Virus record (IMG/VR): IMGVR_UViG_3300045988_059940
Coordinates: 38,650 to 102,649 of that record
Reading direction: 5' to 3' (one strand)
Origin: a virus
DNA: 64,000 nucleotides
Shown here: one piece after another, positions 1 through 57,560 of the stretch
Layout: each line of letters opens with the position of its first letter
How positions within the stretch are numbered: the first letter of the stretch is position 1
Notes under the pieces: generated by a model
Seen by the model: the letters and a program-made list of their open reading frames with translations, nothing else
Databases searched by the model: none
Told to the model about the DNA's origin: nothing
Translations under genes and position numbers: made by a program

Positions 1-1523
1 TACGCACCTACTGCTGCAATACCGTTGTTTTCCATCTCTGCGTCAGCTGCGTCACAATACAAAATACCGCAAGCCAGAGGGTTACGTACCATAATACCAC
101 TTTCACCTAAGAAGTGAACTTGGTAACCGTCGCGGCTATTAGAACGCATCGTGTTAATTGAATTGCCATAACCACTAGGTATAACTGAACCACCAGTACA
201 CCAGGTTACAAACTCACGTCCTTTACGACAAACCTTAACGACGTTAGATTGTCCATCACGCATACCGAAATCTACAAACAAGAACGTATAAGACATAAGT
301 GGTTTGCCAGTCAGAGGATGAAGTTGACGGAACATTTCTGCATTGTCAAACATAGCACAGCGTTTCAATGTTAACTCAATACCGTTGGTCATCTTATAGG
401 TAGTAAACTGACCACCAAGCGTAAGTTCTTGACCAGAACCAGTAATAAACTTAGTATCAATGAGGTTGAAGCTAGCAACTTTTTCCTTCAATACACGGTC
501 GAACTCACGAAGTCCCATCTCTCCTGTAATACCAACAAACTTACGTTCGTTTGTACCAAGCATATTGTAGCTTAGGTCGAACAGATAATCTTCCAGCAAT
601 TCTGACGTAAGAGTAGTGTAATAACGTACGTTAGCAGGAGAAATCTGAGCAAACAAACCAGCACTGATATTTACAGGACGTCCGTTTGTACCTTTTAACG
701 TATAAGTACCGTCTGCATTACGGTTAGGTTTAGCAAACAGAAGCTTCATTTCTTCCCTCTTCTTCCATTCACGAAGGGCCTTCCAGTGTTGATAATCAGC
801 CCACAAATAACTCTTCTTACCAGTTTCTGGGTCAGTTAGAGCGATTGCTAATACGGTAGAATATGCATCACCAGTAATATCATAAGACAGACGTGAAATA
901 GAAAGCGAGTTACGCATCTTAAATGGCGTCTGATAGTTGATGATGTCAGCCTCATCTGAGTACTCTTCGTAAGCACTACCAATACGGCTTACTTGACGAC
1001 CAGGTAAAAGGTATTCGTTTGGAATATATGCACCAGCATAGTTATCTACAACATAGCATTCATAAACCCAAGCGTTACCATCCTGATAGGGAACACCGTT
1101 TGCACGTACTTGGAAATTATAGTTATCAAATGCCAATAGTGCACCAGGACCGAAGAAACGCTCTTCTATACCGAGATAAATAGGAGCACCATTCATACCA
1201 GCGAACCTATTTGCGTTATTATCGTCGCCAACGCGCTTACCACCAGCCTTAGCCCAAAGGATATTAACAGCATGGTCTGCATCAATTTGTACTGACCACT
1301 CATATTCACTGTTATCAATCGTCATAGTCTTACCAAGACCGCCAGTAAGCATGTCAATTACGGTAGATACGCCGTCGTCCTTTGTACCAAATACCAGTGA
1401 AAGAAGACCAGCAATCTCATGAGGTTTAGTTAATGCGGCGTTAGAAATCATATTTTCGTCTACAAGACCTGCAAAGCGCTTACCGCGATACAGTTGTAGA
1501 CCATTAAGTAATGTGTTATTCAT
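1..1523 (-). CDS. Major capsid protein (HK97-fold type); the N-terminal 507 codons are in the window and the 3' end runs off the left edge
   Basis: Hand translation from ATG 1523..1521 (MNNTLLNGLQLYRGKRFAGLVDEN...) stays open to position 1 with no stop of any kind. It is missing from the ORF track only because no stop lies in the window. It is the last gene of the TerL-portal-scaffold-capsid module. Confidence 0.7.
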   Translation of the reverse strand, partial: MNNTLLNGLQLYRGKRFAGLVDENMISNAALTKPHEIAGLLSLVFGTKDDGVSTVIDMLTGGLGKTMTIDNSEYEWSVQIDADHAVNILWAKAGGKRVGDDNNANRFAGMNGAPIYLGIEERFFGPGALLAFDNYNFQVRANGVPYQDGNAWVYECYVVDNYAGAYIPNEYLLPGRQVSRIGSAYEEYSDEADIINYQTPFKMRNSLSISRLSYDITGDAYSTVLAIALTDPETGKKSYLWADYQHWKALREWKKREEMKLLFAKPNRNADGTYTLKGTNGRPVNISAGLFAQISPANVRYYTTLTSELLEDYLFDLSYNMLGTNERKFVGITGEMGLREFDRVLKEKVASFNLIDTKFITGSGQELTLGGQFTTYKMTNGIELTLKRCAMFDNAEMFRQLHPLTGKPLMSYTFLFVDFGMRDGQSNVVKVCRKGREFVTWCTGGSVIPSGYGNSINTMRSNSRDGYQVHFLGESGIMVRNPLACGILYCDAADAEMENNGIAAVGA

Positions 1524-1545
1524 ATATTGTTATAAATTATATTAA

Positions 1546-2664
1546 TTAGTACATACCTGTCAACAGGTCTGTAACTGATTTTTCTTTACTTGTTGCACTC
1601 TGCGAAGTGTGATTTTTAGCAGAGTTTCTTAAAAGTTTTCTAAGTTTCTCAGCAGCAGACGTTTCGCCAGTCTTTTTTGCTGTTGAAACTACGGCATCAC
1701 CTTTCATAGTAAAGTAAGCAGATTCGATTAGGTTCTTTGCTAGATTAGAATCAAAGTCCTTCTGGTATTGTGTATAACCATCTTTATCTGTCTTGAAAAT
1801 ATAATCATACAAAGCTTTGCGGTCTGCTTTTGGGATAGCAATGCCACGAATTGAATCTAAACTATTAATACTATCTGTTACAGATTTCATAAATTGCTGT
1901 TGTTGAGCCTCTTGTTGTCTAGCCAACTCTGCCTGTTGCTTAGCATTTGCTTCTGCTTCATTCTTACGAATTTCTTTAAGCATCTCCAAAGCGTCTTCCG
2001 ACTCTTCGTATAATACGCCAGCATCTTCATATCTAGCAATCTTGTTATTAATCTGTTCATCTGTGTAGCCGTTGTGACGAAGCAAATCACCAATTACAGT
2101 ACGTTGATTGGATTCTGATTCCAAATCAATGTTATCAAGAGTAAGTGCTTGTTTTTGTACTTGATAGAAATCTTCAAACTTACCACCATTCTTTACAAAC
2201 TCATCTAACTTCTATATCCTATCATCTGCATACTGTGGAACTGAGTTCTACTGTACAACATCTGTAAGGTACTTAGTTAGACCATCTACTGTAAGTGGTC
2301 TTTCTTCATCACTAATGTCTGCTATATTCCAACCTAATGATTCAGCAACAGCATCGAACAAAACACCAACTTGTTGTGCCTCAGCAACATCTTCATCAGT
2401 TGGTTCATTTTCATCGACGTCTTGTGTATCTTCTTTATCATCAGATTGTTCTTTGTCAGCAGGCTCTGTGTCTGCTGCTTGATTTATATCATTATCTTCC
2501 TCATCAGGTTCATCGCCTTCTGGTTCTTTAATTTCTGTTACTTCGTCCTCAACCACAATATCTTCATCCAAGTTAGTAGCACTAGTATCTCCTTCTGAAT
2601 TACCGTACATGCTTAACAGGTCATCAAATGTGGATGGATTAGTTTCTTGTTTACGTTTTGCCAT
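1546..2664 (-). CDS. Acidic, coiled-coil head scaffolding-like protein (372 codons, 2 in-frame TAG)
   Basis: Track ORFs 2248..2664 and 1546..2124 share one frame. The only in-frame stops between them are TAG (2248-2250, 2212-2214), and the true stop is TAA at 1546-1548. It has a D/E-rich N-terminal half, a Q/A/E-rich helical segment, and sits just upstream of the capsid gene. Confidence 0.6.
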
Positions 2665-2713
2665 AATTATTAATTAATAATTAAATTATTTGTTTCGCTG
2701 TTTAATCAGCGTA

Positions 2714-3349
2714 TTACCATTCAGTATAATCATAAGGTCGCCTTAGAGTTGTAGGGACACCTTTTTTGGTTTTACCATACAACTAATCACGCATACCTTT
2801 CAATACTTTTTTCATATCTGGAACACCTTTTGTTTTGGCGTTCTTTGGATTTAGCTTCCATTTACTCATTGCAGCATCTATGCTCTTCATGTTAGCCATA
2901 CGATTACTATATGTGTCATATGAAGATTCATAGTATCCTGCGTCTTTTAGTATTCTGGCTGCTTTTCTTGGGTCTGTTTCGTCTAGTACATTATTGTACT
3001 TTTTATCCATTAAGAGATTGTCGCTAATGTAATAGTTAGCAAAGTCTTGTTCGTTTTTAAATTGTTTGTATTGATTAATATTTGGACTAACAATACCTCC
3101 ATAATTGTGTAGATTTCTAGCAATAGGAGATGTACCATTTAATGACTCCAATGCAGTTTGACGCATAGCATTATCTAGCCAATCTAGTTTTCCGACTTCT
3201 TGCAATCTGTCATATAATGCTGGTGCCATCTTTTCAACATATTCATCGTACTAGTCTTTGCCTCCTGCATAATTACGAATATCCCAATAGTTTTCACCAT
3301 TCTTCCAACGGTCAAATCTTTCTTGAAAAGACTTAGTATTATATCTCAT
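2714..3349 (-). CDS. Hypothetical head-module protein (211 codons, 2 in-frame TAG)
   Basis: ATG at 3349 lies 2 nt after the portal TGA. It is in frame with track ORF 2783..3229. TAG occurs at 3251-3253 and 2783-2785, and the terminal stop is TAA at 2714-2716. Confidence 0.6.
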
Positions 3350-3351
3350 AA

Positions 3352-5835
3352 TCAATTCTCCCCAGGAACTTTATTTTTTATAGCCACCTTAGCTTTAAGT
3401 CTTTCACGTTCAAGAGCAGCATCATCTTTTTGCTTTTGTAGCTCCATTTCATGGTTCATGCGCTTCTTTTCCAAGTCAATCTTAGCATCTTCTATTTCAC
3501 GCTTTTGACGTGCTTCATAGCGTTTCTAATAAGCATCTTGGTCAATCTTACGCAGCTGCGTAGCTTCTCTTGCCATCTCTAATGGGTCTGGAATACCGTT
3601 CATATCAATATCCTTATTCTCAGTACCACGATATGTACTAATCTCAGCAACTGCAATCTTAGTTTGATTATCAGCATCAATACGATAGCGTTCAAGGTCC
3701 ATTTCAGCCTCTTTTAGCATAAGTTCTTGTTGCTTAGCTTCATTCTACATTTGTTGTAATTGCATTTGAGCTTGTTGTTCTTGTTGTTGCTGCTGTTGTT
3801 GTAATTGCTCTTGACGAGTTTGCATATCTTGCAGTTTCTGCTTAATGATATTGAAGTTATCACTGGTAAGTAATTCCGCTGCTTCAAGTAAGCTAGCGCC
3901 ATTTTGCATAGCAGGTTGTATAAGCTGTTGAAGTTTTTGTATATTCTCCAAATCCTTAGAAGCATCACTTACAAATACATCCATATCTTCATAATAGAAC
4001 TTCTGTGATATATTTAAGAATGCCCTTTCACCATTATCGAATACATATGAAAGCTTTTGTTTTCCTGAGTCTTGCCAAGCACCTTTGGCTGTATTTAGCA
4101 GCATGTTTAATACTCTGCGCTTACATTGATTGTGTACCCAGAATAAAGGCTCTGTAATATGTGAAGATTGTACAACAGAACGCTCTACATTACCAACAAG
4201 TTCAGATGAACTAATTGCACCTTGACGTTGTTCTGTAATACCAGATATAGTACCTGCAAGCTGTTCAATCTTATCCATTAATTGAATATATTCAGATATG
4301 ACATTACTCATTGTTAAGTCAAGAGCTGTAATCTAATTGAACTGAGCAGGTTTTCCACCTTCTCTCCCTGGCACATTCCAACCTTCGTCATATGGATTAA
4401 TGAAGTTTACACCAACACTCGATAGATAGTGCATCCAACGTTCTGGTGTAATATTCATAGACTTAGGTATCTATGTAATGTCCATATTTACAACCTTACC
4501 TTTATCTCTTGCAATAGCCAACTCCAACCTATACCACAATACAATATACATGTATTGTAGAGGTTTAAGGATACTAACCAAAGACCTGGGCCTACTATTA
4601 GTATTGCTGTATACACAACCACAATATGGAAGCTTTTGTGAATTAGGATTATCAAGACTTACAAATTGATACTCTATTGGTTGTATACCGAAGTATAAGT
4701 CATTTCCTGCTTTATATCCTTCCCAGACCTCTATAATCCAGTCTGGTTCTACTGCTAGTTCTGTACCTACCTTCTTGTATGTCTCATCACATATATTGAT
4801 TTGTGGTTCACCATTTTCGTCCATCGTGGTCACATAGAATATCTTCTTGAAAGATTTCCAGCAACAGTGATATACATCTACATGGTGTTTAGAGTTCATG
4901 TCTCCACCGTCTGAAAGGTCAATAGAACGCATTCTAATGCCCTAGAACGTATCAACACCATCCTTCTCGATGTTATCTACACCAGGTGCACCAGAGAGCA
5001 TCTCATTGAGTTTATTTAGCTCTTTTTCACTAAGTTTATCATAATACCTATCATACACCTCTTGTATAGGTAATTTCATCTTACGAACACACCAAGAACC
5101 ATCTTCTATAAACTCTAAATCTGGACTCTTATCATAATTAAAGTATAAAGGATTTACACGTTCTGCATAAGGGTCACCATTTTGTACACCAACATAATAT
5201 ACTTCTGTACCACTAATTAGACCGTCTTTCCAACCTTTAATAAATTCGTTAGCTAAACCTAGTTTTTCTTTTAAGTACTCCAATGTGTGGTATGCTGTGT
5301 TTTCTATAATATCTTTGTAGTCCTTATCCATATATTTAGCAATAGCTTCTGGTGGCATTATCTCCCCAGATTGCAGTTGTTGTTCAAACTGCTACTGCTC
5401 TTCTGGACTCATTTTTGATTTTATTGATGCCATTATATACTACATCAACATATCCTTTTCTTTGTCTTGCAGCTCTGATACAGCATCCTGTGATGTACGT
5501 ATAACTCTAAAATTCATTGGTCGTTTTGTTTCTTCACCAATTAATAAGTCTATCTTTGGACGTACTATATTAAAGTCCTGTGGAGTAGCAGGAAATCCAT
5601 CATCTACCTTAAATGGATTGGTTATACGTTTAAAGTCGTCCTCATTGAACACACTATTGTATAAATCATAGTATGTTTGCATTTCACTAACATTACTACC
5701 TTTAACTAGTGCTGAATTACTTTTTGATTCGCCTATGATATAATCGACACACTTATGTTGCCAATCCTTATCTTTCTTTGTAAGTGGTAGTTTTTGTTGC
5801 GGAAACGAAGAAGTATGTAAATTACTATCTATCAT
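3352..5835 (-). CDS. Portal protein (827 codons, 7 in-frame TAG)
   Basis: Track ORFs 5440..5835, 4942..5358, 4471..4932, 3745..4311 and 3526..3720 are all in one frame. They are joined by TAG only (5440, 5392, 4942, 4471, 4333, 3745, 3526), with a terminal TGA at 3352-3354. The start lies 5 nt after the TerL stop, and the size and position are typical of a portal. Confidence 0.6.
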
Positions 5836-5839
5836 ATCG

Positions 5840-6480
5840 TTAAAGTGTAAATGTCGGTATGTCGTCCTATTCTGTCACATCGTTGTCCCAGTAATTATTA
5901 CTAAACAATGGCGTTTCAAATAGTTCGACTTGTTTGTTTTTATCTTTATGTGCTTGTGTTTTTATCTGATATAACTCTTCTCTATATATCATTACCATAC
6001 ACAAAGCAATTACTCTATCGACGTTTCTTATTCCGTCATTTTCAATCAGCTCCTCTAATAGAGGTTCGCTGTATATTCGTTCTAAGTTTAGTCGTCCTGG
6101 TTCATATTCATCCATTAACCATTCTAATATTAGACCTTCTCCATACGCTCGTATTGATTTGGTCATATGACAACCTTTTCTTCTTTGTACCTTAGAATCT
6201 TTAAATATCTCTGAGATTACTTTGTCTGGCTAATCAGCCAATAAGTAATCACAGTGTTTATTGGTGAAATAAGGATAAATTCCTTTACGTTCATTTTCAA
6301 ATAATAGTCTAGCATTATAGAACAACAATAACTTTCTTACGTTCTCATAATACTCTTCTGCTGTATCTGGTCTACCAGAATACTCAGCTACTATTACGTC
6401 ATTCCAAGCTTCACCTGCTTGCACGCGTTTAAATATAAATGTAGAGCCTAACGAATTAGTAAAGCTCTCATCGTGGTCAT
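5840..6480 (-). CDS. terL: Terminase large subunit, exon 2 (nuclease domain C-terminal part)
   Basis: This frame continues ...DHDESFTNSLGSTFIFKRVQAGEAWNDVIVAEYSGRPD... through TAG at 6230 and 5867 to TAA at 5840-5842. It joins exon 1 in frame once 6481-6719 is removed. Confidence 0.8.
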
Positions 6481-6719
6481 CAGTTTGTTATCGTACAGCT
6501 TTTTATCTGTACTTCTATATGTTTCCATATAGCCCAGCATACATTATTACTTTGATAGTATCGGGCACTCGTGGCAAGATTATATTTATTCACTTGCTAT
6601 GCGTTACGGTGACCTATAACCTTTCGTAATTTATAGGTTTACCACGGTGTTTCCACATATATTGATTATATAAGGTGTCCTCCGTATTTGCCCGATTTTA
6701 GACCCGCTGACTTACGCGT
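6481..6719 (-). other. Group I self-splicing intron (ORF-less, 239 nt) inside terL
   Basis: P1 pairs exon GACCCGU (6726-6720) with intron GCGGGUC (6707-6701), with a U.G wobble at the splice site. P10 pairs exon 2 UGAC (6479-6476) with GUCA (6711-6708). The intron ends in G (6481). P3 pairs AUCGGGCA (6696-6689) with UGCCCGAU (6567-6560). There is also a GAAA-capped hairpin at 6515-6532 and a hairpin at 6493-6512. Confidence 0.75.
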
Positions 6720-8136
6720 ACGGGTCGCACCCCCCTACATATAATCCATAAGGAGGGTCTTTAACTGGATATTCCCAGATTACAATAGAGCCATGAGGTT
6801 TATCATCTTTTTTTAAATGATATGTTGTAATATCACCAGACTTTTTCTCTGTTGCTACAACATTACCATTCTCAAACCTAAGGTCTACTATATGTTTCAT
6901 ATTCCTAAGCTTTTCGTTTGTTCTAATTCTGGTTAGTTGATTCATCAATAACTTTCTAGGGAATATGTTTTTTCCAAGTTCTAATACAGCTTCTTGTGGT
7001 TTCAAAGGACGTTCTGATACAAATCTGTCAATAGAAGTCTAACTGGCACCACCATCTTTAATAATGTTACGTTGTTTTATTAATTCTTCTATTGCTTTCT
7101 CTTTCATTGAGTTTCCATCTTTGTCCATATATATAGGGTTTCCATTTTCATCAGAACCCTCCATATTAGACCAAGCTGGAACAAAGAACCCACATTTTTT
7201 ATCGGTCTATCCGTCATCCCATATGTTTTCAAATCCTAATACATTAAATGCGTCTGGATTGTAGAATATGTTCTTCAAACCATCAAATGAGCCACCTTCT
7301 GTACCACCTGTTCCAAATAGACACAGAAGACCGAAAGCAACACCATCGTCAGTTTCCACAGCTGGTTGTTCAACACGCCAAGCTGTTTCTAGATTAGGAA
7401 ACTTACCACCTTCTTCAAATAGTACTAATTTACCACGAGTACCACGAAGACGTTCTGGGTCATTCTTCAATGTAATTCCAGTAATGCTTGATAAATAACC
7501 CTGTTCAGTCTATTTACCAAATTCATCGGTTACCTTAAAACCAGCAACACGTTCCATACGAGTACTTGTAAGACGCTGTTTAGACCAGTCTGTATGTTTA
7601 TCCACAAAGTCCATTATCTACCAGGCTTTGGTTAATATACCATCACCGATTAAGAATTTTTGTTCTGATGCTACTGCGAAGTTTTTAGAGCCTGGTATCA
7701 ATTCATAGTTGCGCACTAGCATTGATGCACCTTTAAAACTATATCCTCTCTGCCTACATTTTAATGTAGCCATATGTTTACCTTGCTCTTCCGCTTCTTC
7801 TATTGCATGATAGTAGTAGTAATCGTAATCCCAAAATCTAGGGAAACCAAATATACGCTCACGTCTTGTACGTTTTGCACCATATCTGTCTGTATACTCT
7901 ACTTCTTGCAGTTTCATAATTGGGCTATAATTCAAATAAAAGTAATGATAACCAGTTATAGCATCTCCATCGGGAGCTACATACCCATTTATACATCTGT
8001 CAGTCTCTCTGTCCCAATATGAATTATAGTCAGTAGTACCTCTTGGTGCAAGAGTATAACAACCATGTTCCTAAAAAAATATTGCGGCTTCACGGAATTT
8101 ATCTGAGTTTATCACTCTCTTATTAAAATCAACCAT
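6720..8136 (-). CDS. terL: Terminase large subunit, exon 1 (ATPase plus start of the nuclease domain)
   Basis: The gene starts at ATG 8136. Track ORFs 7618..7935, 7207..7470 and 6712..7005 are in one frame and are joined only by TAG (8071, 7618, 7510, 7207, 7039). The exon ends ...LYVGGCDPY. The two exons together are 2058 nt, or 685 aa. Confidence 0.8.
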
Positions 8137-12800: not shown

Positions 12801-15800
12801 GTGTAACATAATTTGTATTAGAATCACCAATCAATGCTTGGTTGTTTATTATTCTTACACTATCTAACCTAGGACAGTTTTCAATAGCAATTTGTGTTAA
12901 GTTTACATTATTTGCTATTGTTAAATTAGTAAGATTTTTACAGTTTATAATCTATACCTTTTGTAAGTTATTATAACCAGACAAGTCCAAAGATGTATAA
13001 CCATCGCAATCTTCTATATAAACCGTCTATAAATTGTTACATCCTGTCAAGTCAATCTGTTTTAGATATGGTTGATGTCTCAAATCCAACTCATTTATGT
13101 TAGACCTTTGTATCTATAATGTTTTCAAAGGTACGTTGGTCGGTATGTATATGTTTGTAATACATTTACTACCAGATATATTTATATCAGTAAGTTTAGT
13201 AAACTTTGTAAATGCGTGTGGAGTTTTGCTGTTTTGTTCTATATCTAAAACAAATGTTTTCGTGGGGTCTAAGCACTGTGTATTAGAAAAGTCCATAGTT
13301 CTAATCTAAGACTGTATGTCTTTTCTAAATACATCTAATTTAAAGTCTGGGCTAAAATGTTTGTTGCCACTCAAATCTATTTCATATAATGCTGGGAATC
13401 CTAATGCATCTATTGTATTTTGTGCTTCTGTTGCAGCTAATATAGATACCTACATACTTGATAACTTATTGTTAGCATTACCAAGCTTTATGAAGTTATT
13501 TGAATTAGTAATGTTCCAGTTATATGGACCACCATATTTAATGTTGCCAACGTTTACAAACGTTTCTTTATTGTCCTATAAGAAATAGAAAGCGGTAACT
13601 GTATCGCCAATACTTATCTTTGATATTATTGGACAGTTTGTTGTTACTGGGAATACCTGTTGATTTGTACCCATTATACTGTTACCAGTAGATACATCTG
13701 CATTTGATTTAAATGTAATAGATTGCTGTTGCTTTGCAGTATCGCGCCACTTAAATAAGCTATCTAAGAATATAGTATGCTTCTTCAACCAATTTCTACT
13801 ATGTGCAATCTTACGACCATGTAGCTTAGTCATATCTTTTGTATTACTAATTTGGTCGTTAGTAAATTGTAATAGATATTTTAGCTTATAGTCATAATTA
13901 AATATCAACGAACCACAATCTGATGTTTGCTTATCAAAGTATTCATCAATGAAATAATTCGTAAATGTATCATATCCTTTTGACTTAGCTAAATCTTCTG
14001 TAAACTTTCTAAAATCATACCAATATTTTGTATATAGTGAATTTACATCTTCTCCAAATACTGCCCTACTAAACGATGTGTCTAATGACAACCACAGTTT
14101 GTTTGTATTTGCAGACACTGTTTTTCTAGATATAGCTTCGTCGAAATTAAATGTTTCTGATACATACTACAATCCATTTTGTGCATTTGCAACAGTACCC
14201 TTGTTTGTTAGATACTTAATCCACACATCTGGTGTAATAGACAACTAACCTTGGTTATCACCGCTCATAGAACAGTCTAGGTCATAAAAGTCAGTAAGGT
14301 ATTTGTTTCCATCCCAAGACCTATATGTTGAGTTCTTTCCAAAGTTATCAACTAATCCAAAGAAGTTTGCAATGATGAAGTATTTCATTGCACTTTCTAC
14401 ATTGAATCCTAGGTTCTCAGCACTTACTGCATTGGAATCAATTTCAATATCTTGTTTCTAACCAGTCTTATAATAGTTATTAAAGTTATCAACTGAGTAT
14501 AAATCATAAGACCCTGCAATATAGTTTTTAGAAATCGTACCAATAGAGTCACTACTATAACAGCGTTCTATTGGGAAGCGCATTATGTTCTTTACGAACT
14601 GTACAAATCCTGGGTAATCGCTAACCTATTTATTTGATGGGTATCTAACATCAAACCTACGATTTAAGATTTCTCTATCACTTTGCCAGAAATCACCATT
14701 TGAAGTATTTATACCTTCTGGAAGTGTATCTTTTACATTTGCAAAATCACTTAGAGATACAGTATCTTTAATTTCTATCCAGTTTGCATTTTGTGTATCT
14801 TCCTCTACGTATTTTACTTTATCTTTATAGAATGGGAATGTAGTTACCTCAAATACATTATTACCTTCATCTACGATTTTATTTACTTTCTTAAATCCTA
14901 AGTTTCTATATGCGTTACGACCTAGGTTAAATGAATATATTCCAAGTGGCGTAGTAGATACTTTATTTTGCGCATCTGTGTAGAATTTCATTATTAAGAA
15001 TACAGGGAAACCTTCTACTGTATGTTTAAGTGTAGCTGTCTTTTGCTGCTTCTTAACATAATCAGACTCATATACATTGTCTACTGCTTTTTTATCGAAT
15101 GGGAAATATTCAGATGTACCAATTCTACCAAGTGCACTATTTATAAACGAACCAATAGAAGCATTACTAGCATGAGAGCTGTCTACAACGTCAGCTTTAA
15201 GTGTATATGTCTGTTCAGGAAACCATGTAGATTTTGGTACAAATGCTGTTGTGTCAGGTACAGTTATGTTTACGTTCTTAACTGCGTCTGCTAGCGTTGA
15301 AGTACCTTGTAATTCAATTGTGACACCGTTAATTGTTTTAATACTAGTGTCAATACCTGTCTTATCTTGTTTGTTTATTCCAACTGGGTCCCAGTATTGT
15401 ATAACTTTATTTGTAGTAGCAGTTAGAGTTGTAGATGATGCTGATTGCTGTTTTACAAACTAATCAAATGTCCAAGATGAGTCGTTACTAACATCAATCA
15501 ATACAATAGGTATGCCAATAAATGCAGCCTATTCTTGTATGCTTTTACTATTTAATCTACCATTAGAATCTAGTAAGAAGTCTACATTATAGCCAGTATG
15601 CTCGTTGTATAGGTATGATTTAATACTACCATCAGATTTTCTTTCACAGAAGTTCTTTTTTAATTCTACCTATATTCTTGCATAGTTTGGAGTTCCATTT
15701 ACATAATCAGTTGACACAATATTATTTATACTATCAACCATTATGTCGAACTCATTAAGTGCATATGTATATATATTCATGTTATATATATCTACATCAC

Positions 15801-22056: not shown

Positions 22057-22082
22057 GTATTATTTTATATTAATTTATATAG

Positions 22083-22170
22083 ACGCCCCAGTAGGAGTCG
22101 AACCTACCCTGTCACCTTCAGAAGATACGCGGTTTTAGAGACCGCCAGTGCCACCGTACACCATAGGGCG
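22083..22170 (-). tRNA. Amber suppressor tRNA, anticodon CUA, class II (long variable arm)
   Basis: Hand fold: CGCCCTA / TG / GTG..CAC D-arm / GCGGT-CTCTAAA-ACCGC / 21-nt variable arm / GTAGG-TTCGACT-CCTAC / TGGGGCG / T73. The anticodon loop is C-U-CUA-A-A. Confidence 0.85.
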
Positions 22171-33253: not shown

Positions 33254-33861
33254 AATCTTTCTCTCTTAGTTTAAATAATAAAACATCTATAAGATAGGAA
33301 ATATTGAAACACCTATTAATAGAAGATATTGGCGTAAATCCAATAGAGAGAACTATTTTATTCAAATATAGCAGTAACTATTATACCAAAAACTTAATAA
33401 CTTTCCAAGTCATTGAGGACACCAGTTTCTTACACCCAGTAAGTTTTAGGTGTAAAATGCAATTCAAGACACTAATCACGTCTAGAATCCATCTTTGTTT
33501 GAATTGATTACTCAAACGGAGAAATACCCGTAAAACGGAGCTCAACTACAAAATACGCTCGTAGTTGCTGAGTATAGGTAGAATTGTGTTTAGTAATTGA
33601 GTACGAGGATACGAAGTTACGTGACACTCTGGAAAGACAGAGAGTATGCTTAATTGCGCAAGTAAGTATACTAGCACTATCGTATAACATATAGATTACG
33701 CTCCGTGCTGTCGGAGAAATGTAGGCTTATTACCTACTAGTGCACTAATTGTTGTCAGCCCCTGTGTGAATAATAGTAACACTTATAGGAACTGTCTGGT
33801 GTGGTCACGAAAGTGGCAATTTAATCATAGCTTAATTAAATCCTGCTATGGGGTAAATATT

Positions 33862-56989: not shown

Positions 56990-57433
56990 CAACATGCAGT
57001 CTGGTGTAATTAACCCAAGTTAGAATGTGTACAATTCGATGCGGGTGGAGTATGAAAAGAAAATAAGTAGAAGTAGAAAAACTCGCGAATAAGTATATTT
57101 TAAAAGTTTTCAAAGTAATATCTTGCAGACCATCTATGAGGATGGAGGTTGGAGATAACAAGTTTATCTACTGCATTATGGGGGTATATGGCTTTGATTT
57201 TAGACGGAAGATATGTAAGCATGTAGAGCTTGTAACAGCTCTTAAATATAGTTACAATAAAATTAACCGACAACGTTATTTTGTCAATTGCAGCTTAATT
57301 GAATAATAGTAAATTTGGCGCACATTACACAGAACCACTCAAAGTAACTGTATATGTAATGTAATTATTTGGGATTCAAAATGTTTATTCATAATTTTAA
57401 ACATGTAGAAAGCATATAATAACTCTGAAAGAC

Positions 57434-57458
57434 GTGGGTTCGAATCCCACTACCTCCA
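57434..57458 (+). ncRNA. Orphan T-arm plus 3' acceptor strand (tRNA 3' half-like)
   Basis: GTGGG-TTCGAAT-CCCAC-TACCTCC-A. The only candidate 5' partner (GGAGGTT) lies about 290 nt upstream at 57144. Confidence 0.35.
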
Positions 57459-57560
57459 CAAGGCCATTCTTTTGCGTTTTAAGCGCTTAATACAGCTCTC
57501 TAACACATTTCATCACCTCCCAGTGTTGAGTGGCTTAGAACAAAAAAGAATGGCTAATTT

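Follow-up and report, generated by a model that had tools for sequence, protein, structure and literature searches.

Phage genes with group I introns have long been known, and the T4 td and nrdB introns, which belong to group IA and self-splice experimentally, are well suited for comparison with the element described here. This element lies in an AT-rich stretch of 64,000 nt with 35% G+C, which we call the window. Like the T4 introns, it occupies a protein-coding phage gene, shows the order P3'-P8-J8/7-P7'-P9 (with GNRA loop) followed by a 3' hairpin, and has an additional helix between P7 and P3'. Unlike them, it is small: td and nrdB introns measure 0.6-1 kb and contain ORFs for I-TevI or I-TevIII, whereas the window intron has 239 nt and possesses neither ORF nor P2. 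Sequence similarity to the T4 introns is marginal (17-20 bits), and the host phages and host genes are unrelated.

The host gene in the window encodes the terminase large subunit (TerL). Group I introns were also described in TerL genes of Bacillus phages from Bastillevirinae, and experiments verified splicing for some of the predicted introns (Nucleic Acids Res 2025, PMC11878797). Most of the introns in that study resemble subgroup IA, HNH genes are present in 32 of 45, some lineages are devoid of a nuclease gene, and detection was accomplished with Rfam and GISSD models (PMC11878797). The window intron likewise splits TerL, and TerL copies in Staphylococcus phages of Sextaecvirus belong to the same RNA family. 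In contrast to both the Bastillevirinae and the Staphylococcus cases, it sits in another TerL lineage and at another insertion site; unlike the Bastillevirinae introns, its family goes undetected by the Rfam group I model.

The phage group itself has been surveyed before. Delta-group crAss-like phages recode TAG, carry suppressor tRNAs and harbor many self-splicing elements in their conserved genes (Yutin et al. 2021, PMC7886860). Introns were located there by means of their endonuclease domains, and in the Delta group "TerL typically contains an intein" (PMC7886860). The window belongs to the same phage group, but its TerL intron has no ORF, and in relatives TerL carries an intein together with an intron of the window type, 7 nt apart. 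Another system worth comparing is the psbA intron of cyanophage S-PM2, which reportedly engages in "collaborative homing" with the free-standing endonuclease F-CphI. Both are ORF-less phage introns whose spread may depend on an outside endonuclease cutting near the site. The difference is that the candidate endonuclease in our case belongs to an intein which only relatives possess, 7 nt upstream, and its link to the intron is putative. New here are an endonuclease-free intron in TerL of a crAss-like phage, its co-occurrence with an intein, and a family missed by the Rfam model.

We propose, with a probability of about 93%, that positions 6719-6481 of the minus strand constitute an ORF-less 239-nt group I intron in TerL of a crAss-like phage that recodes TAG and is of the Suoliviridae/Oafivirinae type. 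The proposal is based on an exact junction, a covarying structure, a widespread family of phage introns to which the element belongs, and presence/absence polymorphism in relatives.

TerL is encoded on the minus strand and starts with ATG at 8136. The frame of its first part (ORF 6712..7005 on the minus strand) closes with ...GGCDPYA and a TAA at 6714-6712. TerL breaks off at 6720|6719 and continues from 6481|6480 in a different phase; downstream, the open TerL frame reaches back no further than 6489 (Q-T-D-DHDESF...), and the phase shift amounts to 6712-6230 = 482 = 3n+2. Joining of 8136..6720 with 6480..5840 results in a CDS of 2058 nt, which codes for 685 aa plus TAA and includes seven in-frame TAG codons. 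A previous reading of this DNA, made from the sequence only, had claimed both the stop at the end of exon 1 with resumption in a different phase and the 2058-nt in-frame product. The reading frames agree with the former, and uninterrupted relatives display a junction identical to the latter. Neither exon is disrupted by TAA or TGA, and invariant residues are intact. The spliced CDS matches PHROG 6681 (terminase large subunit) with E = 4e-149; searches of spliced TerL found no family in Pfam, and among PDB sequences only chance matches to nanobodies and HLA.

The predicted spliced RNA joins ...GACCCGT to the exon-2 start ATGACCACG, so that the protein reads GGCDPY|DHDESF at the junction (peptide across the junction GGCDPYDHDESF). 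Spliced TerL is colinear over its full length with uninterrupted TerL proteins of crAss-like Suoliviridae (Oafivirinae), with 78-86% amino acid identity. Alignment to intron-less homologues, which the sequence-only reading named as a check, confirmed the junction: uninterrupted relatives such as cr272_1 encode GGCDPYDHDESFTNSLGSTF, the product of the predicted splice, contiguously. The motif spanning the junction, G.DP[YF] plus DHDES, is contiguous in 38 of the 120 best TerL protein clusters. The exact splice point could lie at either of two adjacent nucleotides (T|AT or TA|T); we chose T|AT because it is the sole option that gives U before the 5' splice site and G at the 3' end of the intron. 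The 80 best TerL relatives from IMG/VR are all intron-less, a sample biased by the search pattern CDPYDHDE, which itself spans the junction, and we based no estimate of intron frequency on them.

A tRNA with anticodon CUA, labelled "tRNA-Pyl" by ARAGORN, is located at 22082-22170 on the minus strand and is likely a suppressor for TAG. At least three of the seven TAG positions in TerL align with Gln in relatives. The presence of seven in-frame TAG codons in TerL along with a CUA tRNA implies that TAG is read as sense by the phage. Features of the locus and of its relatives are collected in Table 1.

Table 1. Positions of the TerL exons, of the intron elements and of related elements in other phages. 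Positions refer to the window unless another record is named; window coordinate = 6720 minus intron position.
Feature	Position	Strand	Intron position	Description
TerL exon 1	6720..8136	-		ends with T, first base of the Tyr473 codon; 5 in-frame TAG
TerL exon 2	5840..6480	-		opens with AT of the Tyr473 codon; TAA 5842-5840; 2 TAG
Group I intron (proposed)	6481..6719	-	1-239	239 nt, no ORF
P1	6701..6726	-	guide 13-19	exon GACCCGU 6726-6720 with guide GCGGGUC 6707-6701; loop 6719-6708
P10 guide	6708..6711	-	9-12	GUCA; pairs with exon-2 UGAC 6479-6476, one-nt offset
P3, 5' strand	6689..6695	-	25-31	partner 6567-6561
J3/4		-	32-34	AAU
P4 and P5	6644..6685	-	P4 35-40 with 71-76; P5 45-53 with 59-67	P5 inside P4
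P6/P6a	6608..6643	-	77-79 with 110-112; 82-89 with 101-108	conserved loop AUUACGAAAGG
J6/7		-	113-115	GUA
P7, 5' strand	6598..6604	-	116-122	A116, bulged C117, G118-A122; partner 6541-6536
P7.1	6574..6597	-	123-127 with 142-146	hairpin; conserved loop UGAAUAAAUAUAAU
P3, 3' strand	6561..6567	-	153-159	pseudoknot with P7
P8	6549..6560	-	160/161-163 with 169-171/172	hairpin
P7, 3' strand	6536..6541	-	179-184	
P9	6515..6532	-	188-194 with 199-205	7-bp hairpin, GAAA tetraloop
P9.1	6493..6512	-	208-213 with 222-227	6-bp hairpin
omega-G	6481	-	239	at 3' splice site; terminal G in all aligned family members
TerL of cr131_1 (L001, NC_055902)	1501-4837 of that record			same-site intron 3980-4202
TerL of cr7_1 (L002, NC_055895)	1119-4480 of that record			same-site intron 3616-3839
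TerL intein carriers	~2911-3969 in L001			L001, L002, L151, L212-L218, L220-L223
Homologue in cr118_1 (crAss)				within split helicase
Homologues in two Staphylococcus Sextaecvirus phages (L088, L089)				within TerL; 178-198 bits
Homologue in phage 6ec				tape-measure gene, downstream of HNH ORF
Artefact protein clusters				P0016-P0045, P0053-P0057, P0081; N-terminus M..YRS.DKKLYDN..

Much of this anatomy was already proposed in the sequence-only reading. P1 (GACCCGU/GCGGGUC with U.G at the cleavage site) is present on the minus strand, as are P10 (GUCA/UGAC, 6711-6708 with 6479-6476), the intron-terminal G, the 7-bp hairpin capped by GAAA (6532-6515) and the 6-bp 3' hairpin (6512-6493). Two of the proposed helices stand in part. 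An 8-bp P3 was claimed, and AUCGGGCA (6696-6689) does pair with UGCCCGAU (6567-6560) on the minus strand; across the family, however, P3 comprises 7 bp, as the eighth pair A24-U160 is rarely kept, and RNAalifold extends P8 rather than P3 through the column of U160. From the claimed TACGG/CCGUA helix, the ACGG part covaries with the first CCGU (intron 73-76, 6647-6644) and represents P4, but the second CCGUA (intron 111-115) is not its partner and corresponds to the 3' strand of P6 plus J6/7. The overall claim of a 239-nt ORF-less group I intron is supported by a covarying full architecture and by the lack of any ORF of at least 40 aa within 6481-6711, where each of the six frames contains at least two TAA or TGA stops.

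Other features are typical of group I introns as well, namely an A-rich J4/5, J3/4 and J6/7 of 3 nt each and a GNRA loop on P9; the P9 loop reads GGGA in the close relatives cr131_1 and cr7_1. The wobble pair U6720.G6707 of P1 falls exactly at the junction set by intron-less homologues. P10 of relatives is formed by GGUC with GAUC or GACC, so that 3-4 bp are kept. P4 of the window copy contains a single A.A mismatch (intron 39/72), and one same-site relative (L212) has identical bases there. In P7, the pair G118-C183 adjoins the bulged C117; 86 of 89 sequences have G-C there, in contrast to the covarying pair across the bulge (AU 43, GC 39, CG 4). We consider G118-C183 a candidate for the guanosine-binding pair, for which near-invariance next to a covarying neighbour is the expected pattern.

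The loops of P6a (6620-6630) and P7.1 (6579-6592), both on the minus strand, are highly conserved across the unrelated phages and host genes that were read, with bajarodcaudo virus 2 as an exception; the P7.1 loop doubled as the search pattern by which IMG/VR copies were collected. Both loops are candidates for tertiary contacts. By its P7.1 between P7 and P3', the intron resembles subgroup IA, a clean subgroup assignment being barred by the absence of P2 and P7.2 and by the single hairpin between P7 and P3'.

The structure was assessed on a family of related sequences. Seven complete cores were aligned, their structure was written and covariance models were built from them, which yielded 105 copies in the fetched phage loci. 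In a scan of the window with the family models, the only family copy is found at 6481-6699 on the minus strand; its 195-205 bits place it among the best hits, and the fetched loci with an intron at the same site score 190-223 bits. Over 97 distinct sequences, 93.4% of cells in the 54 pairs are paired, compared to 68.0% in shuffled and 32-44% in slid controls. Changes on both sides are seen in 49 of the 54 pairs (mean of 38.5 in shuffles), and not one of 500 shuffles attained any of the observed measures. The whole intron structure is far beyond chance. The fraction of paired cells is 76% for P3, 91.5% for P4, 98.5% for P6/6a, 98% for P7, 99.6-100% for P7.1, 96.7% for P8, 99-100% for P9 and 99.2% for P9.1, and all 11 pairs of P6/6a vary on both sides. 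A MAFFT alignment, fitted to no structure, has 96% of cells paired. Independently, RNAalifold recovers P3, P4, P5, P6/6a, P7.1, P8, P9 and P9.1.

Pairing of the P7 5' strand with the P3 3' strand, and of the P3 5' strand with the P7 3' strand, was rejected: only 15-64% of cells are paired in this arrangement, versus 76% for P3 and 98% for P7 when the strands are crossed. Because the alignment came from a model that paired these strands wrongly, the covariation test of P3 and P7 is not circular. The covariance model R2 was rebuilt with P3 only. R2 also has a weak match elsewhere in the window (13637-13805 on the minus strand, 16.5 bits, E = 0.03); it is contained in an uninterrupted ORF of 180 aa and probably arose by chance.

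The guide sequence tracks the exon also at other insertion sites, as in the combinations CAUGGU/GCCAUG, GACGGU/GCCGUC and CUGCGGU/GCCGCAG. P1 taken alone carries little weight, since P1-like helices of at least 7 bp occur in ~6% of shuffled upstream sequences. An automated search for P1 over 90 family members gave a weak enrichment (17% versus 6% of controls). In many copies, P1 and P3 are separated by a P2 hairpin or by an ORF, an arrangement disallowed by the script.

The search with Infernal and the Rfam group I model, which had been suggested as a check, gave a negative answer. RF00028 (Intron_gpI) had no match at its gathering threshold in the whole window, none with E <= 10 in positions 6380-6820 (441 nt), and none in eight loci that hold homologues of the intron. 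This says little about the element, because the same model scores the T4 td intron below threshold (40.3 bits versus 50) and misses the nrdB intron. RF00028 is thus a poor detector of phage IA introns, and it has been pointed out previously that variants of phage introns may escape Rfam and GISSD models (PMC11878797). An unfiltered search of 8 kb of T4 with R2 gave 28 matches, and the top three correspond, on the correct strand, to the td 3' core, the nrdB 3' core and td P4-P6. These matches reach only 14-20 bits, and their E-values of 6e-4, 3e-3 and 2e-2 are all rough, as is the calibration of the model; even so, it is unlikely that all three best matches would fall by chance within ~500 nt of a 16-kb search space. 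As the Rfam group I model is blind to a widespread family, surveys based on Rfam or on endonucleases undercount phage introns. The covariance model built here can be used for finding more family members.

In a blastn search, the intron had no match close to its full length, and partial similarity was detected in 145 phage records. Those homologues that were inspected sit between the halves of split genes in unrelated phages, and some of them adjoin HNH or LAGLIDADG ORFs. At least 120 IMG/VR stretches contain a 26-nt signature of the family, which the window has in a single copy. Members of the family are also found in Staphylococcus, Clostridium, Bacillus and cyano-phages.

Phage taxonomy and surveys of crAss-like phages rely on TerL as their main marker gene. 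The intron breaks this marker, and the outcome is truncated CDSs in RefSeq and at least 32 artefact protein clusters. Among the 120 best TerL protein clusters, 32 start inside the intron, at an AUG located in P7', from which P9 and P9.1 are translated into exon 2. The homologues at the same site in cr131_1 and cr7_1 have 223-224 nt; the RefSeq TerL CDSs of both phages comprise exon 1 together with an intein and stop within the intron, leaving ~640 nt of exon 2 unannotated. Annotation of the intron is absent from every record inspected.

If the element follows the standard group I pathway, the pre-mRNA would fold into the P3-P9 core, and the guide GCGGGUC would pair with the exon end GACCCGU to form P1. 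Free guanosine held at the G-C pair of P7 would then attack the phosphate after U6720. Subsequently, GUCA would align exon 2 through P10, the terminal G6481 would take the place of guanosine, and the exons would be ligated. Such ligation would restore the Tyr473 codon (T|AT) and the sequence GGCDPY-DHDESF. We infer catalysis by this intron.

One may ask whether the intron still splices at all. A decayed copy in a TerL pseudogene, residing in a defective phage or in a mis-assembled contig, would fit with the A.A mismatch in P4 and with the missing endonuclease ORF. We find this very improbable, given that all helices are intact and score among the best matches, that the exons are open and keep their invariant residues, and that TerL is essential for DNA packaging. 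Moreover, the comparison with L212, whose intron is 96% identical, reveals a compensatory change in P6a (A-U to G-C), which points to continued selection on the intron structure. A genuinely split TerL, with an ATPase-plus-linker protein and a separate nuclease protein divided by some other structured RNA, is harder still to accept. Gene callers do predict separate products, but exon 2 is without a start codon at its beginning and the called proteins begin at the AUG in P7'. The motif contiguous in 38 clusters speaks against the split as well, and in the model of a relative the break would part the invariant Asp from the rest of the nuclease fold.

The least credible explanation is that ribosomes bridge the gap while translating, either through programmed frameshifting or through hopping in the manner of T4 gene 60. 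The parts of TerL do lie in different frames and a stop codon follows soon after the junction. The gap to be crossed, however, is 239 nt long with at least two TAA or TGA codons per frame, its sequence shows covarying RNA helices across unrelated host genes, and the borders implied by protein alignment have U at -1 and a terminal G. The hop in T4 gene 60 spans 50 nt, and we know of no bypass approaching 239 nt. Even taken together the three alternatives are improbable, and the covariation is explained by none of them.

The preferred reading, a group I intron in TerL, raises the question of what it interrupts. According to the sequence-only reading it is the nuclease domain of terminase, and structural modelling concurs. 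An AlphaFold model (pLDDT 81, pTM 0.71) was made of an intron-less relative (cluster P0001) sharing 85% identity with the last 288 residues of spliced TerL. In a Foldseek search of this model against PDB, the top matches were T4 gp17 (E = 1e-5), RB49 gp17 and the nuclease of G20c TerL, with TM 0.64-0.70 for the nuclease domain of RB49 gp17. That the intron splits the RNase H-like nuclease domain of TerL is supported by these matches to the relative's model, which places the split between the first two strands of a nuclease-like domain. The Asp in GGCD, which does not vary among 50 sequences, terminates the strand 143-148 of the model; presumably it has a catalytic role. The intron is positioned two codons past this Asp, and its site is thus probably, as judged from the model, the first metal-binding motif of the nuclease domain.

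The same motif is occupied by a second element in relatives. Between GG and CDP, 7 nt upstream of the intron site, there is a LAGLIDADG intein (CLTPGEKV...THN|C), which the window lacks. Of the 11 distinct loci examined that have an intron at this site, 9 contain it. Eight clusters that start within the intron were traced to their contigs: seven carry intein and intron, and L219 alone has an intron without intein. Among the 120 best clusters, only one (P0015) possesses the intein by itself, and 38 contain neither element. The L219 intron (~2336-2560 of that contig) has its splice site 1 nt upstream of that in the window (GACCCU|...G|UACGAC, phase 0), with the matching guide UUGGGG. Either intron sliding or an independent insertion may account for this site.

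The window intron is 95.8% identical to the L212 intron, whereas the flanking exons share 77-80% identity; other same-site introns are ~72% identical at comparable divergence of exons. Such disparity between intron and exons indicates recent lateral transfer of the intron, which from sequence comparison would have taken place between intein-bearing and intein-less alleles. Exon-2 identity of the window and L212 is 84-89% near the junction versus ~80% overall, a slight rise that is not decisive for co-conversion. The window intron encodes no homing endonuclease, and an intron of this kind most likely spreads by means of an endonuclease acting in trans or by recombination during co-infection.

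We tentatively raise one further idea, which we hold to be possible but rather doubtful: the ORF-less intron and the LAGLIDADG intein could act as a cooperating pair in a case of "collaborative homing". The intein endonuclease would cut TerL that lacks both intron and intein at the codons of the Asp motif, and during repair one element or both would be copied into the break. An allele with only the intron, such as that in the window, would have the target of the endonuclease disrupted and would thereby be shielded from the intein. Consistent with this are the linkage to the intein in 9 of 11 loci and the single intein-only cluster versus 38 empty ones, and also a 96% identical intron shared by intein-bearing and intein-less alleles whose exons are ~80% identical. 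With an intron and an intein on the same putative active-site codons and a recent transfer of the intron indicated, the locus represents a tractable case for the study of endonuclease-less spread.

Several observations were made alongside. In Dulem virus 42 (L004, 826-1917), TerL is broken elsewhere, at ~aa 264-275, by a LAGLIDADG-encoding element. The gene directly downstream of TerL is enlarged in L222 (3694-6645) and in L217/L218 (3208-5705) and has Hom_end_hint or LAGLIDADG matches; in annotated relatives the gene after TerL is the portal gene, which suggests an intein in the portal gene of these phages, too. In other parts of the window, Rfam gives a full-length tmRNA match on the plus strand at 57180-57461 (95.4 bits, E = 6e-36), where ARAGORN makes no tmRNA call, and a match to RAGATH-12 RNA on the plus strand at 33774-33855, with 89 bits versus the Rfam threshold of 75.
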